NCBI RefSeq assembly: GCF_030013205.1 | Contig: NZ_CP122648.1 | Strand: one strand, 5' to 3' | Origin: Escherichia coli | Lineage (GTDB): Bacteria > Pseudomonadota > Gammaproteobacteria > Enterobacterales > Enterobacteriaceae | Length of the DNA stretch: 64,000 bases | Shown: one piece after another, positions 28,313 to 52,227 of the stretch | Position numbering within the stretch: the first letter of the stretch is position 1 | Layout of the letters: each line of letters begins with the position of its first letter | Program-made: the position numbers and the translations under genes | Notes under the pieces: model-generated | What the model was told of the DNA's origin: nothing | Databases searched by the model: none | Seen by the model: the letters and a program-made list of their open reading frames with translations, nothing else

Positions 28313-29992
<1,680 letters not shown>

Positions 29993-30245
29993 TTATAGGG
30001 CTTTTCTTTAAGGGTAGTCATTCGCTCCGCCTGGTGGGCGACAAACCGTGCGGTGGATCACGTTTATTAACTTGTCAAAAAATATAACGCACTAATATCA
30101 ATGGAATTTATAAAAATACGGATTTCGTGTTGTTTTTCATTTTCAGAACATTCAATCCTGCTCTCGCCGCAATCATGATATGCCATTCCTGATCTGGGTA
30201 ATAGGCACAGGCTATCTTATTGATAGTTTATATTCATGTAATTGA

Positions 30246-30259
30246 TTGATTCCTATCAA
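30246..30259 (+). promoter_or_regulatory. FNR box (TTGAT-N4-ATCAA) upstream of ccp
   Basis: Perfect TTGATTCCTATCAA about 108 bp upstream of the ccp ATG; ccp is remembered as anaerobically (FNR/OxyR) activated. Confidence 0.55.
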
Positions 30260-30366
30260 AAAGCGTATTTCCCTGTTTTTTATGATGGCTTTGTCTCGCA
30301 GAGACGTTTGCAGCATTCTGGAAAATTTTCTGGGTCACAATAACTCACCACCGTGAGGGAAGAATA

Positions 30367-31764
30367 ATGAAAATGGTCTCACGTATTACCGCGATCGGCC
30401 TGGCTGGCGTCGCGATTTGCTATTTAGGGTTATCTGGTTATGTGTGGTACCACGATAATAAACGCAGTAAACAGGCTGATGTTCAGGCATCTGCTGTCAG
30501 TGAAAATAATAAGGTTTTAGGCTTTCTCCGCGAAAAAGGATGCGACTATTGCCACACGCCTTCGGCAGAATTACCCGCCTATTATTATATTCCTGGCGCG
30601 AAACAGTTGATGGATTACGACATTAAGCTTGGATATAAATCTTTTAACCTCGAGGCCGTGCGTGCGGCTCTGCTGGCTGATAAACCCGTTTCGCAAAGCG
30701 ATCTGAATAAGATTGAATGGGTGATGCAGTATGAAACCATGCCACCAACGCGTTATACCGCGCTACACTGGGCGGGTAAGGTGAGTGATGAAGAGCGGGC
30801 GGAAATACTCGCCTGGATTGCAAAACAGCGCGCGGAATATTACGCCAGCAATGACACTGCACCGGATCATCGTAATGAACCGGTGCAGCCCATCCCGCAA
30901 AAACTGCCTACCGATGCGCAAAAAGTGGCGTTGGGCTTTGCGCTGTATCACGATCCCCGTTTATCGGCGGATAGCACCATTTCATGCGCTCATTGCCATG
31001 CGTTGAATGCGGGGGGCGTCGATGGCAGAAAAACATCGATTGGTGTTGGTGGCGCAGTGGGGCCGATTAACGCGCCGACGGTATTTAACTCAGTATTTAA
31101 CGTTGAGCAGTTCTGGGATGGTCGTGCGGCAACATTGCAGGATCAGGCTGGTGGACCGCCGTTGAATCCGATTGAAATGGCGTCGAAATCCTGGGACGAA
31201 ATTATTTCTAAGCTGGAAAAAGATCCGCAGCTTAAAGCGCAGTTCCTCGAAGTCTATCCGCAAGGTTTCAGTGGCGAAAATATTACTGATGCCATTGCTG
31301 AATTTGAGAAAACATTAATTACGCCGGATTCCCCATTTGATAAATGGTTGCGTGGAGATGAGAATGCGCTGACGGCACAACAGAAAAAAGGCTATCAATT
31401 ATTTAAAGATAATAAATGTGCAACTTGTCATGGTGGTATTATTCTCGGCGGACGTTCCTTCGAACCGTTGGGGCTGAAAAAAGACTTTAACTTTGGTGAA
31501 ATTACGGCGGCGGATATTGGTCGTATGAATGTTACTAAAGAAGAGCGCGATAAATTGCGTCAGAAAGTACCCGGTTTACGTAACGTTGCACTAACGGCAC
31601 CGTACTTCCATCGCGGTGATGTGCCGACGCTGGACGGGGCGGTGAAACTGATGTTGCGCTATCAGGTAGGCAAAGAGCTGCCGCAGGAGGATGTGGATGA
31701 TATCGTAGCTTTCCTGCACAGTCTGAACGGGGTTTACACGCCGTATATGCAGGATAAACAATAA
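30367..31764 (+). CDS. ccp: di-haem cytochrome c peroxidase
   Basis: 465 aa; several CxxCH haem-binding motifs (CDYCH, CAHCH, CATCH). Confidence 0.92.
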   Translation: MKMVSRITAIGLAGVAICYLGLSGYVWYHDNKRSKQADVQASAVSENNKVLGFLREKGCDYCHTPSAELPAYYYIPGAKQLMDYDIKLGYKSFNLEAVRAALLADKPVSQSDLNKIEWVMQYETMPPTRYTALHWAGKVSDEERAEILAWIAKQRAEYYASNDTAPDHRNEPVQPIPQKLPTDAQKVALGFALYHDPRLSADSTISCAHCHALNAGGVDGRKTSIGVGGAVGPINAPTVFNSVFNVEQFWDGRAATLQDQAGGPPLNPIEMASKSWDEIISKLEKDPQLKAQFLEVYPQGFSGENITDAIAEFEKTLITPDSPFDKWLRGDENALTAQQKKGYQLFKDNKCATCHGGIILGGRSFEPLGLKKDFNFGEITAADIGRMNVTKEERDKLRQKVPGLRNVALTAPYFHRGDVPTLDGAVKLMLRYQVGKELPQEDVDDIVAFLHSLNGVYTPYMQDKQ

Positions 31765-40660: not shown

Positions 40661-41188
40661 CTAAAAATAAGATGTGATACCCAGGGTGACGATGTCGCTC
40701 ATACGTCTTAGTTTCAGCTTGTACATAATGTTGAATTTCTGAATCTTTAATGTTTGTTGCGAAATATTGAGCGTCGACGTGATATTGCTTTCATTTTTAT
40801 TTTTCAGAATCAGTTGCATAATTTTGAACTGATTATGTGAAAAACATAATTGTGAATTCTTATGGGGCAAGTGTTTACCATAAGTAATCTCAAGAAGATT
40901 TTTGATACTTTCTTTGCGGCTGACAAAATAAATAGGCGCTTTAGCTTTTAGTTTACTGATGTGATAAGGTGCCAAAACAATAATTCTCTCGGCATCTAAT
41001 TTCTCCAGAAATTTAATCGCTTCTTCATCAAGGATATGATTGTGATAGGTATCAATGATAACCTTGAAGGGTTTATTGCCTACTTTTTTGATCTCTGACA
41101 GGGAATTGATTTTTATCATTTCGTGATTATCTTTCAACTGCCAAAAGCCCTGTAAAAGAAAAGAATCTTTCGTCATGAGAAAAATCAT
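40661..41188 (-). CDS. gadE: LuxR-family acid-resistance activator
   Basis: ORF 40661..41266 trimmed to the ATG at 41188 (MIFLMTKDSF..., 175 aa); AT-rich. Confidence 0.88.
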   Translation of the reverse strand: MIFLMTKDSFLLQGFWQLKDNHEMIKINSLSEIKKVGNKPFKVIIDTYHNHILDEEAIKFLEKLDAERIIVLAPYHISKLKAKAPIYFVSRKESIKNLLEITYGKHLPHKNSQLCFSHNQFKIMQLILKNKNESNITSTLNISQQTLKIQKFNIMYKLKLRRMSDIVTLGITSYF

Positions 41189-41986: not shown

Positions 41987-42559
41987 TTATTGCTGCTTAA
42001 CGAACAAACTGGCGAAGCTGAACAGGCTGGCGGCGCTAAATATCAGTTCAATACCCACCAGTGTGGAAACCAAAGTTACAGACACCATCGGCGTTGCACC
42101 AAGGAATATCCATGCAATGACGATATCCAGCACACCAATAACGAGCTGTAGCCAGCTGCCTTTCATTGAACGCTGACGATACCAACTCATCAGGCGAATA
42201 ACCCCTGCAACACAGAACAAACCGGCAATAAATGCCGCAATGGCAAAAATGCCCAGCTCCGGTGCGCGGATGAAGAAATAGCCGATCAATAAATAGGCGA
42301 CTGCGACGAGGAAACCGGATAATACCGGCCAGAAATTATGACTGCGGTTGCTGAATAATCCAACAATAAGCGCAACGCCCGAGCAGATTAATAATGCACC
42401 CACTACCGTGCTTAAAATATCGCCAGAGACGAACGGGAAACTGATACACAGCAACCCGACGATAAACAGCAACACGGCAATAAACTGGATTGCTCTGCGA
42501 TGCTTTTTCAGCATCTCCAGATCAAACTTCAAAATTGTTGCCTTATCTATATATAACAT
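41987..42559 (-). CDS. hdeD: acid-resistance membrane protein
   Basis: 190 aa, multi-TM; divergent from hdeAB. Confidence 0.9.
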   Translation of the reverse strand: MLYIDKATILKFDLEMLKKHRRAIQFIAVLLFIVGLLCISFPFVSGDILSTVVGALLICSGVALIVGLFSNRSHNFWPVLSGFLVAVAYLLIGYFFIRAPELGIFAIAAFIAGLFCVAGVIRLMSWYRQRSMKGSWLQLVIGVLDIVIAWIFLGATPMVSVTLVSTLVGIELIFSAASLFSFASLFVKQQ

Positions 42560-42813
42560 AGAACCACCCTATAAAATTAAGAAGAAAATCCCCTGCTATC
42601 AATCTATGCCAAAAACGCGTCTAAGAATGCAGTCGATTTAATAAAAATTTCCTAATTACAGTATCTGATGCATCTGTAACTCATTGTATTGAAATAAAAA
42701 TATCTGATTTTGATATTTTCCATCAACATGACATATACAGAAAACCAGGTTATAACCTCAGTGTCGAAATTGATTCGTGACGGCTCTTTCACTTTATAGT
42801 TGAGGATATTACG

Positions 42814-48647: not shown

Positions 48648-49562
48648 TTATTGCGGCCAAAGCTGCTGGTGTAAAGACTCAACGACATCAGCAATACGCG
48701 GACCCATTCCCAGAATCAGGTTTTGATCAACGGTGATAATGCGCTGGTTTTTCCATGCGGCAGTGTGGGTAATTCCGGCAATAGAACGTAGCCGATTAAT
48801 ATCGCCATCGACCATTTGTGAGGTTACGACAATCACTTCTGGATTGGCCGCAATCAGTGATTCTGCACTGTAGCTTTTGTACTGCTGGTGGGTTGCGACG
48901 TTTTCTGCTCCGGCAAGCGAAAGAATGGCGTCCGCGACGCTGCCTTTACCGGCAACTTGTGGCGCACTTCCGCCTGCGGAGAGAATAAACATGGCTTTAA
49001 CCGGGGCTTTTTTGGCCGCCACGTTTTGCTGTACTCGCTCCAGGCGTTGGTTGATCTGTGTCACCAGCGCCTCGCCTTGTTCAGGAACCTGTAGCGTTTT
49101 TGCCAGTTGGCGAATGTTGGCGTACATCTGCTCAAGGGTGGCAGGCACACGCGGCAGGGTAACGACGTTGACTTTCTGCGCCCGTAGTTGGTCGAGCACA
49201 ATTTGCGGTCCAGCATCCTGCCAGGTAATTACGCTATCCGGGCGAAGTGACAAAATGCCTTCGCTGCTGAGTTGTTTCCAGTAGCCAATATGCGGCAGTT
49301 TGGCGGTTTCTGGTGGATAAGATGTCGTTTCATCGACACCAACCACGCGTTCGCCAGCGCCCATCGCGTAGATTAGCTCCGTCAGCGATCCTCCTGCGAC
49401 CACGATACGTTCGGCAGCCGTTACGCTAAAAGCCCAGCTAAGAGCCAGTACTGCCGTAAACAATTTTTTTCGTTTTACCGCGGTCTTCGCGGCAGAGGCC
49501 ACGGCTGAAATACATAACGTTAGTGGGGAAAAAAGAAACGGCCTGGTGATGATCCTTGGCAT
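48648..49562 (-). CDS. chuT: periplasmic haem-binding protein of the ABC system
   Basis: ORF 48648..49640; start placed at the ATG at 49562 (304 aa) because a Fur-box-like sequence at 49587-49606 would otherwise lie inside the coding region; start uncertain. Confidence 0.75.
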   Translation of the reverse strand: MPRIITRPFLFSPLTLCISAVASAAKTAVKRKKLFTAVLALSWAFSVTAAERIVVAGGSLTELIYAMGAGERVVGVDETTSYPPETAKLPHIGYWKQLSSEGILSLRPDSVITWQDAGPQIVLDQLRAQKVNVVTLPRVPATLEQMYANIRQLAKTLQVPEQGEALVTQINQRLERVQQNVAAKKAPVKAMFILSAGGSAPQVAGKGSVADAILSLAGAENVATHQQYKSYSAESLIAANPEVIVVTSQMVDGDINRLRSIAGITHTAAWKNQRIITVDQNLILGMGPRIADVVESLHQQLWPQ

Positions 49563-49586
49563 AATATGAGAACTCTTATCAAATTG

Positions 49587-49606
49587 AGAATGATCATGAT
49601 TATCAT
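49587..49606. promoter_or_regulatory. Fur box upstream of chuT (chuTWXYUV operon)
   Basis: GAATGATCATGATTATCATT resembles the Fur consensus GATAATGATAATCATTATC. Confidence 0.6.
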
Positions 49607-49935
49607 TTGGGTTATATATGAAATACAACCGTCGATTCAATACGTAAGGCGTTACAAGCGTATTTATTTTTGATTTTTATCAAGATGCTTCGTCAGCTAA
49701 CGTTCTTGTTACCGACTAAATTTCAGCGCGGGAAAAAGCTGAGAACCCAGAGATATCAAGGCTTGCAGAGCAAAGCGAAGAGAAAATTATCACTGTTAAC
49801 GACAAAGTTTAGTGATGAGGTCATGGGGGAATAACCATAAAAACAAAGTGGTTTCCAGGGCGCAGGATAAGTTTCATAACCCCCTGTTTATTGTGTTAAT
49901 GGCGGTTAAAAAAAGCTTGATCATAAAAAATTGAT

Positions 49936-49954
49936 CGATAATAATTCTCATTAT
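49936..49954. promoter_or_regulatory. Fur box in the chuT–chuA divergent region (candidate chuA promoter operator)
   Basis: GATAATAATTCTCATTATC, about 290 bp upstream of the chuA ATG. Confidence 0.6.
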
Positions 49955-50244
49955 CACGTTTGCGCTTAACAAAACACGACCATATGGATAACAAAACCAT
50001 AGCATTTGCAAGGGATAACGCACAGCGCTCTTCACTCCTGATGGGGCATATCGTTTTGCCTGACAAAGAGGGCGTGCTTTTGCGTATTTGCCGAGATACC
50101 AGGCAATTTCATGGGATATAAACGCCTGTAAACTCACCCGGCGAATATTATCGCTCTGAATTTTAAATAAATTTATTTTTCGCCAGCCACCCCGGTATTA
50201 ACCCAGGCAGCCAGCATTTTTTATTTTCCTCATGGAGAATCGCT

Positions 50245-52227
50245 ATGTCACGTCCGCAATTTACCTCGTTGCGTTTGAGTTTGTTGGCTTTGGCTGTTTC
50301 TGCCACCTTGCCAACGTTTGCTTTTGCTACTGAAACCATGACCGTTACGGCAACGGGGAATGCCCGTAGTTCCTTCGAAGCGCCTATGATGGTCAGCGTC
50401 ATCGACACTTCCGCTCCTGAAAATCAAACGGCTACTTCAGCCACCGATCTGCTGCGTCATGTTCCTGGAATTACTCTTGATGGTACCGGACGAACCAACG
50501 GTCAGGATGTAAATATGCGTGGCTATGATCATCGCGGCGTGCTGGTTCTTGTCGATGGTGTTCGCCAGGGAACGGATACCGGACACCTGAATGGTACTTT
50601 TCTTGATCCGGCGCTGATCAAGCGTGTTGAGATTGTTCGCGGACCTTCAGCATTACTGTATGGCAGTGGCGCGCTGGGTGGAGTGATCTCCTACGATACG
50701 GTCGATGCAAAAGATTTATTGCAGGAAGGACAAAGTAGTGGTTTTCGTGTCTTTGGTACTGGCGGCACGGGGGACCATAGCCTGGGATTAGGCGCGAGCG
50801 CGTTTGGGCGAACTGAAAATCTGGATGGTATTGTGGCCTGGTCCAGTCGCGATCGGGGTGATTTACGCCAGAGCAATGGTGAAACCGCGCCGAATGACGA
50901 GTCCATTAATAACATGCTGGCGAAAGGGACCTGGCAAATTGATTCAGCCCAGTCTCTGAGCGGTTTAGTGCGTTACTACAACAACGACGCGCGTGAACCA
51001 AAAAATCCGCAGACCGTTGAAGCTTCTGATAGCAGCAACCCGATGGTTGATCGTTCTACAATTCAACGCGATGCGCAGCTTTCTTATAAACTCGCCCCGC
51101 AGGGCAACGACTGGTTAAATGCAGATGCAAAAATTTACTGGTCGGAAGTCCGTATTAATGCGCAAAACACGGGGAGTTCCGGCGAGTATCGTGAACAGAT
51201 AACAAAAGGAGCAAGGCTGGAGAACCGTTCCACTCTATTTGCCGACAGTTTCGCTTCTCACTTACTGACATATGGCGGTGAGTATTATCGTCAGGAACAA
51301 CATCCGGGCGGCGCGACGACGGGCTTCCCGCAAGCAAAAATCGATTTTAGCTCTGGCTGGCTACAGGATGAGATCACCTTACGCGATCTGCCGATTACCC
51401 TGCTTGGCGGAACCCGCTATGACAGTTATCGCGGTAGCAGCGACGGCTACAAAGATGTTGATGCTGACAAATGGTCATCTCGTGCGGGGATGACTATCAA
51501 CCCGACCAACTGGCTGATGTTATTTGGCTCATATGCCCAGGCATTCCGCGCCCCGACGATGGGCGAAATGTATAACGATTCTAAGCACTTCTCGATTGGT
51601 CGCTTCTATACCAACTATTGGGTGCCAAACCCGAACTTACGTCCGGAAACTAACGAAACTCAGGAGTACGGTTTTGGGCTGCGTTTTGATGACCTGATGT
51701 TGTCCAATGATGCCCTGGAATTTAAAGCCAGCTACTTTGATACCAAAGCGAAGGATTACATCTCCACGACCGTCGATTTCGCGGCGGCGACGACTATGTC
51801 GTATAACGTCCCGAACGCCAAAATCTGGGGCTGGGATGTGATGACGAAATATACCACTGATCTGTTTAGCCTTGATGTGGCCTATAACCGAACCCGCGGC
51901 AAAGACACCGATACCGGCGAATATATCTCCAGTATTAACCCGGATACCGTTACCAGTACCCTGAATATTCCGATCGCTCATAGTGGCTTCTCTGTTGGTT
52001 GGGTCGGTACGTTTGCCGATCGCTCAACACATATCAGCAGCAGCTACAGCAAACAACCTGGCTATGGCGTGAATGATTTCTACGTCAGTTATCAAGGACA
52101 ACAGGCGCTCAAAGGCATGACCACTACTTTGGTGTTGGGTAACGCTTTCGACAAAGAGTACTGGTCGCCACAAGGCATCCCACAGGATGGTCGTAATGGA
52201 AAAATTTTCGTGAGTTATCAATGGTAA
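50245..52227 (+). CDS. chuA: TonB-dependent outer-membrane haem/haemoglobin receptor
   Basis: 660 aa; signal peptide; TonB-dependent receptor architecture; C-terminal aromatic residue (...SYQW). Confidence 0.9.
   Translation: MSRPQFTSLRLSLLALAVSATLPTFAFATETMTVTATGNARSSFEAPMMVSVIDTSAPENQTATSATDLLRHVPGITLDGTGRTNGQDVNMRGYDHRGVLVLVDGVRQGTDTGHLNGTFLDPALIKRVEIVRGPSALLYGSGALGGVISYDTVDAKDLLQEGQSSGFRVFGTGGTGDHSLGLGASAFGRTENLDGIVAWSSRDRGDLRQSNGETAPNDESINNMLAKGTWQIDSAQSLSGLVRYYNNDAREPKNPQTVEASDSSNPMVDRSTIQRDAQLSYKLAPQGNDWLNADAKIYWSEVRINAQNTGSSGEYREQITKGARLENRSTLFADSFASHLLTYGGEYYRQEQHPGGATTGFPQAKIDFSSGWLQDEITLRDLPITLLGGTRYDSYRGSSDGYKDVDADKWSSRAGMTINPTNWLMLFGSYAQAFRAPTMGEMYNDSKHFSIGRFYTNYWVPNPNLRPETNETQEYGFGLRFDDLMLSNDALEFKASYFDTKAKDYISTTVDFAAATTMSYNVPNAKIWGWDVMTKYTTDLFSLDVAYNRTRGKDTDTGEYISSINPDTVTSTLNIPIAHSGFSVGWVGTFADRSTHISSSYSKQPGYGVNDFYVSYQGQQALKGMTTTLVLGNAFDKEYWSPQGIPQDGRNGKIFVSYQW

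Follow-up and report, generated by a model that had tools for sequence, protein, structure and literature searches.

The sequence TTGATTCCTATCAA resides in the intergenic region between the divergently transcribed genes treF and ccp (yhjA) of an Escherichia coli chromosome, and was analysed within a stretch of 64,000 nucleotides of this DNA (hereafter called the window). The region between the two genes spans 404 bp and has a GC content of 39%, falling to 33% over positions 30060-30300, compared to 50% for the window as a whole. The two genes and the features predicted between them are as follows.

28313-29962, minus strand: treF, an open reading frame whose ATG lies at 29962.
30201-30237, plus strand: predicted OxyR-type site, formed by a perfect ATAG-N7-CTAT-N7-ATAG (30201-30226) and, after an interval of 7 nucleotides, a weak fourth copy, TCAT (30234-30237).
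30246-30259, no strand assigned: predicted FNR binding site, TTGATTCCTATCAA, a perfect TTGAT-N4-ATCAA palindrome centred at 30252.5.
30281-30286, plus strand: inferred -10 hexamer TATGAT, with 5 of 6 matches to TATAAT, 21 nucleotides past the end of the FNR site.
30293, plus strand: predicted transcription start, about 7 nucleotides past the -10 hexamer, from whose position it is derived.
30367-31764, plus strand: ccp (yhjA), an open reading frame of 465 amino acids with an ATG start, identified by RefSeq annotation and Pfam domains.

An earlier note on this DNA described a perfect FNR palindrome about 108 bp upstream of a cytochrome c peroxidase gene and proposed that FNR activates this gene under anaerobic conditions. 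Direct reading of the sequence bears out the palindrome, which agrees with the TTGAT-N4-ATCAA consensus at 10 of 10 positions, and also the distance: the last base of the site is at -108 relative to the ccp ATG (30367), with 107 nucleotides in between. The identity of the downstream gene is confirmed by the RefSeq annotation of identical DNA and by three Pfam domains, namely CCP_MauG (PF03150, E = 6.4e-57), Haem_bd (PF14376, E = 4.6e-30), and Cytochrom_C (PF00034, E = 1.2e-11). Ccp possesses the CCP_MauG domain with c-type haem motifs that marks bacterial di-haem cytochrome c peroxidases, and is a membrane-anchored tri-haem cytochrome c peroxidase.

Perfect matches to TTGAT-N4-ATCAA are rare. 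Only two are present in the 64-kb window, at 30246 and 49670, against a chance expectation of 0.12, and none of 100 dinucleotide-preserving shuffles carried two or more. Scaled to the 404-bp intergenic region, the expected number is approximately 0.0008. When evaluated with an FNR position weight matrix (PWM) built from 63 ChIP-seq-supported FNR sites (Myers et al. 2013, Table S6), TTGATTCCTATCAA scores 14.78 bits, which is the second-best value in the window and is near the median of the training sites (15.19).

The informative distance at this promoter is not that to the ATG, as given in the earlier note, but the 21-22 nucleotides that separate the FNR site from a -10 hexamer. With the start predicted from TATGAT, the centre of the FNR site would be located near -40.5. 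The -35 position reads AAAAAG and overlaps the edge of the FNR site, and a consensus scan of the plus strand from 29900 to 30450 returned no sigma-70 promoter and no good -35 element; a weak or absent -35 of this kind is characteristic of class II FNR promoters. Partridge et al. reportedly also placed the yhjA FNR site at -40.5, and our full-text literature search returned nothing relevant on a mapped yhjA start or on the position of the FNR site. In 19 of the 23 FNR-activated promoters with a known start, the site is found at -41.5 +/-4 (Myers et al. 2013), and the predicted geometry at ccp fits this class II arrangement.

A second regulatory element is predicted to adjoin the FNR site. Sites for OxyR comprise four ATAG-type elements at intervals of 10-11 bp, and the element upstream of ccp carries three perfect copies and the weak fourth copy TCAT. 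Its end is separated from the FNR site by 8 bp, and its centre would lie near -74 relative to the predicted start. The perfect ATAG-N7-CTAT-N7-ATAG motif occurs twice in the window compared to 0.10 expected occurrences. Its only other occurrence (42547-42572, minus strand) overlaps the start codon of a 190-amino acid, hdeD-sized open reading frame (41987-42559) and may be a chance match. An account of ccp control by FNR only, as offered in the earlier note, is incomplete, having missed the OxyR-type site, the spacing to the -10 hexamer, and the negative ChIP-seq result described below.

The FNR site of ccp and the control of this gene by FNR and OxyR are already known, and our interpretation provides no new biology on these points. 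According to later papers that cite the study, Partridge, Poole, and Green (2007, Microbiology 153:1499) reported that yhjA is under dual control by FNR and OxyR, and that its anaerobic induction is lost in an fnr mutant. A curation paper related to RegulonDB likewise states that FNR activates yhjA under anaerobiosis and that OxyR is also an activator of this gene. FNR was found bound in vivo at yhjA and treF by ChIP-qPCR (Lemmens et al. 2009), and TTGATAGGAATCAA, the reverse complement of the site, is tabulated for yhjA/treF at K-12 coordinate 3667319 with a PatSer score of 14.16 (Myers et al. 2013, Table S6). The Imlay laboratory, in its reviews, counts ccp among the genes that OxyR induces and places its expression under hypoxia, and Ccp is known from the literature to support H2O2 respiration. 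The proposal that FNR activates ccp anaerobically thus finds support in the yhjA literature and in the 14-mer of Table S6 and, independently, in the comparison of genera given below.

The ccp promoter of the window is the same locus as the K-12 yhjA promoter and shows no difference of substance. The window strain and K-12 diverge by approximately 1.7% over the 600 bp surrounding the FNR site. The segment running from the OxyR element through the FNR site to the -10 hexamer is identical in a K-12 derivative save for one base at 30270, the 14-mer is identical, and the flanking genes are the same. The 600-bp region has a match in 5422 of 5426 complete E. coli genomes, with 95-100% identity and always between treF and ccp.

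When species-representative genomes were scanned with Ccp as the query, 41 loci were obtained, including 36 from Enterobacterales for which upstream DNA is present. An FNR-type site with a score of 11.9 bits or more is found upstream of the ccp start in 34 of these 36 loci, at a distance to the ATG of about 87-122 nucleotides in most loci and of 227 nucleotides in Providencia heimbachae. The 34 loci represent 10 groups, consisting of nine named genera (Escherichia, Citrobacter, Pluralibacter, Trabulsiella, Entomohabitans, Hafnia, Enterobacillus, Providencia, and Yersinia) and one MAG. Equally good matches occur elsewhere in the same loci at a frequency of 0.015 per 400 bp, and within each 400-bp region the runner-up nearly always scores much lower. 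One of the two exceptions is Buttiauxella, where the right half-site is degraded (TTGATAGCCCGCAA) at the same position. The other is a second ccp locus of Entomohabitans teleogrylli, which carries no FNR-type site within 400 bp upstream. Beyond the Enterobacterales, no FNR site was found upstream of ccp in Saezia.

The two Entomohabitans teleogrylli loci (L024 and L023) derive from two assemblies, and the protein of each is 75% identical to the query. They may represent a single gene that was assembled twice, or else two copies; the OxyR-FNR module (TTGACGGTGGTCAA) is present at one of the loci.

Information content was computed on 16 representatives anchored on the FNR site. The left half-site TTGAT retains 1.89 bits and the right half-site ATCAA retains 1.62 bits, compared to 0.47 bits for the four-base spacer and 0.29 bits for the downstream flank. 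The spacer differs by species (TCCT, ACTT, AAAA, AAGG, AGTG, and others), and in these orthologous promoters it is evidently free to vary while the half-sites are conserved. Half-sites that are kept amid drifting spacer and flanks are the pattern expected of a protein-binding palindrome.

The neighbouring elements are conserved in sequence and in register. Across genera, the three OxyR tetrads retain 1.74-1.86 bits. The distance from the start of the OxyR element to the start of the FNR site is exactly 45 nucleotides in 16 of 17 representatives and 56 nucleotides in Providencia burhodogranariea (L017, about 2820-2890). The 11-bp insertion in the latter is equivalent to one helical turn and would leave both proteins facing the same side of the helix. 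A -10-like hexamer with at least 4 of 6 matches to TATAAT is present 21-22 nucleotides past the FNR site in 13 of 17 representative promoters. The exceptions are E. albertii (23 nucleotides) and Entomohabitans (26 nucleotides), together with the MAG and Hafnia, in which no hexamer exceeds 3 of 6 matches.

Only in Escherichia and Citrobacter does treF adjoin ccp on the upstream side. In Pluralibacter, Trabulsiella, Hafnia, Enterobacillus, Providencia, and Yersinia, the module is found at the same distance from ccp without an adjacent treF gene. Because the module persists at ccp in the absence of treF, it belongs to ccp. The comparative addition to what has been published is modest, in that the arrangement of OxyR site, FNR site, and -10 hexamer holds its register, base for base, between Escherichia and the genera Yersinia and Providencia, and travels with ccp. 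This cross-genus conservation of the OxyR-FNR layout is mildly new, as is the suggestion, developed below, that OxyR gates the access of FNR.

Two alternative assignments of the palindrome can be weighed against these comparative data. CRP and FNR palindromes are related, and AT-rich intergenic DNA makes matches likelier, so the sequence might be bound by CRP or another regulator, or might have arisen by chance. We consider this extremely improbable. The half-sites are TTGAT and ATCAA rather than TGTGA and TCACA, and no genus departs from the TTGA core. A CRP site specifically was rejected, as the sequence departs from TGTGA-N6-TCACA, reading ATTGA/TCAAA in the CRP register, and the T of TTGA that distinguishes FNR sites is invariant. 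With only 0.12 perfect matches expected per 64 kb, conservation over 10 groups excludes a chance occurrence. The location of the site within the shared treF/ccp intergenic region also raises the question of whether it serves the divergent treF gene, or both genes, rather than ccp alone. DISTILLER predicts treF to be a high-confidence FNR target, in agreement with the positive ChIP-qPCR result for this gene (Lemmens et al. 2009), and anaerobic treF expression is approximately 2-fold higher only in an hns/stpA mutant (Myers et al. 2013). However, the centre of the site is approximately 290 bp from the treF ATG (29962) and approximately 260 bp from the one sequence on the treF strand that resembles a promoter (30021-29992), which are distances far outside the positions known for FNR activation. 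Moreover, ChIP-qPCR is unable to separate two genes that share 404 bp, and the module keeps its fixed distance from ccp in genera that lack an adjacent treF gene. A function at treF is therefore very unlikely, and treF was rejected as the main target because of this distance and the loss of synteny.

A third alternative is that TTGATTCCTATCAA is a high-quality but silent FNR motif, closed by H-NS and IHF, and that ccp is driven mainly by OxyR. An argument for this view is that no FNR ChIP-seq peak was reported at the ccp site in anaerobic glucose minimal medium (Myers et al. 2013). We searched Tables S5 and S7 of that study for an FNR peak near K-12 3667xxx and found none, with the region appearing only in the H-NS, IHF, and predicted-site tables. 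The hns/stpA mutant is likewise devoid of an FNR peak near the ccp site in these tables. The site falls inside an extended anaerobic H-NS region (K-12 3661953-3667384) and inside an IHF region (K-12 3667035-3667586), and the intergenic DNA is AT rich. Even so, we find a silent motif very unlikely. The half-sites have been kept in 10 groups while the spacer and flanks have randomised, and their spacing to the OxyR element and to the -10 hexamer is fixed. ChIP-qPCR detected FNR at yhjA, and FNR-dependent expression is described in the literature. In addition, the ChIP-seq cultures were grown without H2O2, and OxyR would therefore have been inactive in them. The wild-type array in the same study shows yhjA expression to be approximately 2-fold higher anaerobically (Myers et al. 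2013; 0.4997 in Table S12, in which entries <0.5 denote more anaerobic expression).

From the combined evidence, TTGATTCCTATCAA is very probably a functional FNR activator site for ccp. In the mechanism we propose, dimeric [4Fe-4S] FNR would bind the palindrome when oxygen is absent, approximately 40.5 bp upstream of the predicted start and over the missing -35 element, and would probably recruit sigma-70 RNA polymerase through class II contacts. Oxidised OxyR would bind the four-element site that ends 8 bp upstream of the FNR site, centred near -74, from where it may serve as a co-activator and possibly as an anti-silencer against H-NS and IHF. If both activators are needed, the ccp promoter would operate as an AND gate that opens when oxygen is absent and H2O2 is present. 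The site sequence, its rarity, the three-part layout, and the linkage to ccp rather than treF are findings of the present analysis, whereas the dependence of expression on FNR and OxyR and the binding of FNR in vivo are taken from published work. Such an AND gate matches the role of Ccp, which permits H2O2 to be used as a respiratory electron acceptor in anoxic habitats. The site would then show E. coli limiting its cytochrome c peroxidase to a narrow condition, namely peroxide without oxygen.

Occupancy of the ccp site by FNR looks conditional, plausibly on OxyR. The simplest way to reconcile the published observations would be that stable FNR occupancy and strong activation both need OxyR bound alongside, and the fixed spacing between the OxyR and FNR sites is consistent with this dependence. 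A stricter version, which we advance tentatively as a possibility somewhat short of an even chance, is that the two sites form a rigid composite operator retained throughout Enterobacterales at a fixed spacing of 45 bp (45 + 11 bp in one species), and that FNR is barred from its perfect site in vivo unless oxidised OxyR adjoins it and opens DNA that is otherwise covered by H-NS and IHF. If true, this would explain how a consensus site with published FNR dependence can yield no ChIP-seq peak. More generally, the ccp promoter offers a clean test case for perfect FNR sites that seem unoccupied in genome-wide ChIP experiments.

Like the class II promoters of narG, nirB, dmsA, yfiD, and focA, the ccp promoter has a TTGAT-N4-ATCAA site that is predicted to be centred approximately 41 bp upstream of the start, over a poor -35 element, and its spacing to the putative -10 hexamer fits the -40.5/-41.5 class to which these promoters belong. 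In contrast to ccp, all five exhibit FNR ChIP-seq peaks in plain anaerobic culture, and ccp also differs from them in its reported need for OxyR as a second activator. The pnir and pnrf promoters provide another parallel. There, FNR plus NarL/NarP counteract IHF and Fis (PMC5434802). As in those promoters, ccp has FNR at what is predicted to be a class II position, a second, signal-specific activator upstream, and nucleoid proteins over the region, although at ccp the second activator is the peroxide sensor OxyR and not a nitrate/nitrite response regulator. OxyR may act at ccp by displacing H-NS or IHF.

The OxyR portion of the ccp promoter resembles the control regions of katG, ahpC, and oxyS in having a four-element site of the ATAG-N7-CTAT-N7-ATAG type upstream of the core promoter. 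At katG, ahpC, and oxyS, the OxyR site abuts the -35 element. At ccp, that place would be taken by FNR, and the OxyR site is shifted one position further upstream, to near -74.

Variation among E. coli strains includes at least one natural disruption of the module. The exact 30-mer centred on the FNR site is present in 3964 of 5426 E. coli genomes. Two genomes that lack the 30-mer were inspected and were found to carry G>A at 30265, in the flank, with the 14-mer intact. We therefore rejected the reading that 27% of E. coli genomes vary at the site itself, as both inspected genomes differ in the flank rather than in the site. In strain fS54a (L045, 1303-2500), the FNR palindrome is interrupted by an IS5-like element, at a place equivalent to window positions 30252-30256. 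The element belongs to the ISKpn26 family, its transposase gene is frameshifted, and CTAT is duplicated at both junctions. The insertion displaces the left half-site, together with the OxyR site, by approximately 1.2 kb from the ccp promoter, and is thus a natural disruption of the FNR operator. In E. coli TUM17668 (hit H15), the treF-ccp match begins only at window position 30170 and the record has two places, which is suggestive of a further insertion or rearrangement immediately before the OxyR element.

Between the predicted start and the coding region of ccp, a hairpin of the form CTCAC-N4-GTGAG (30344-30360) extends its 3' arm into the ribosome-binding site (GAGGGAAG), and among Escherichia, Citrobacter, and Pluralibacter the arms are kept and the loop varies. 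A structured 5' leader for ccp was considered and rejected, as folding of 30293-30390 gives z = -0.46, which is no better than shuffles. The minimum-energy fold of the leader pairs GUGAGGG with downstream coding sequence and not within the 30344-30360 hairpin.

The other perfect FNR consensus in the window, TTGATTTTTATCAA at 49670-49683, has the top PWM score (18.16 bits). It is located between a chuT-like gene (48648-49640, minus strand) and a gene for a chuA-like TonB-dependent haem receptor (50245-52227), where both names were assigned from translations. Fur-box-like sequences are present nearby at 49584-49607 and at about 49937-49955, and no obvious -10 hexamer at class II spacing from TTGATTTTTATCAA was seen by eye. 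The window strain carries these chu haem-uptake genes further along the window from ccp, unlike K-12, which is not known to have them; the chu locus would therefore fall outside the K-12 FNR ChIP coverage. A further FNR-type site, TTGATTTTTATCAT at 41106-41119, scores 14.72 bits with the same PWM. By coordinate offset, it corresponds to the ChIP-seq-positive sequence ATGATAAAAATCAA at K-12 3656458, upstream of gadE (Myers et al. 2013, Table S6).
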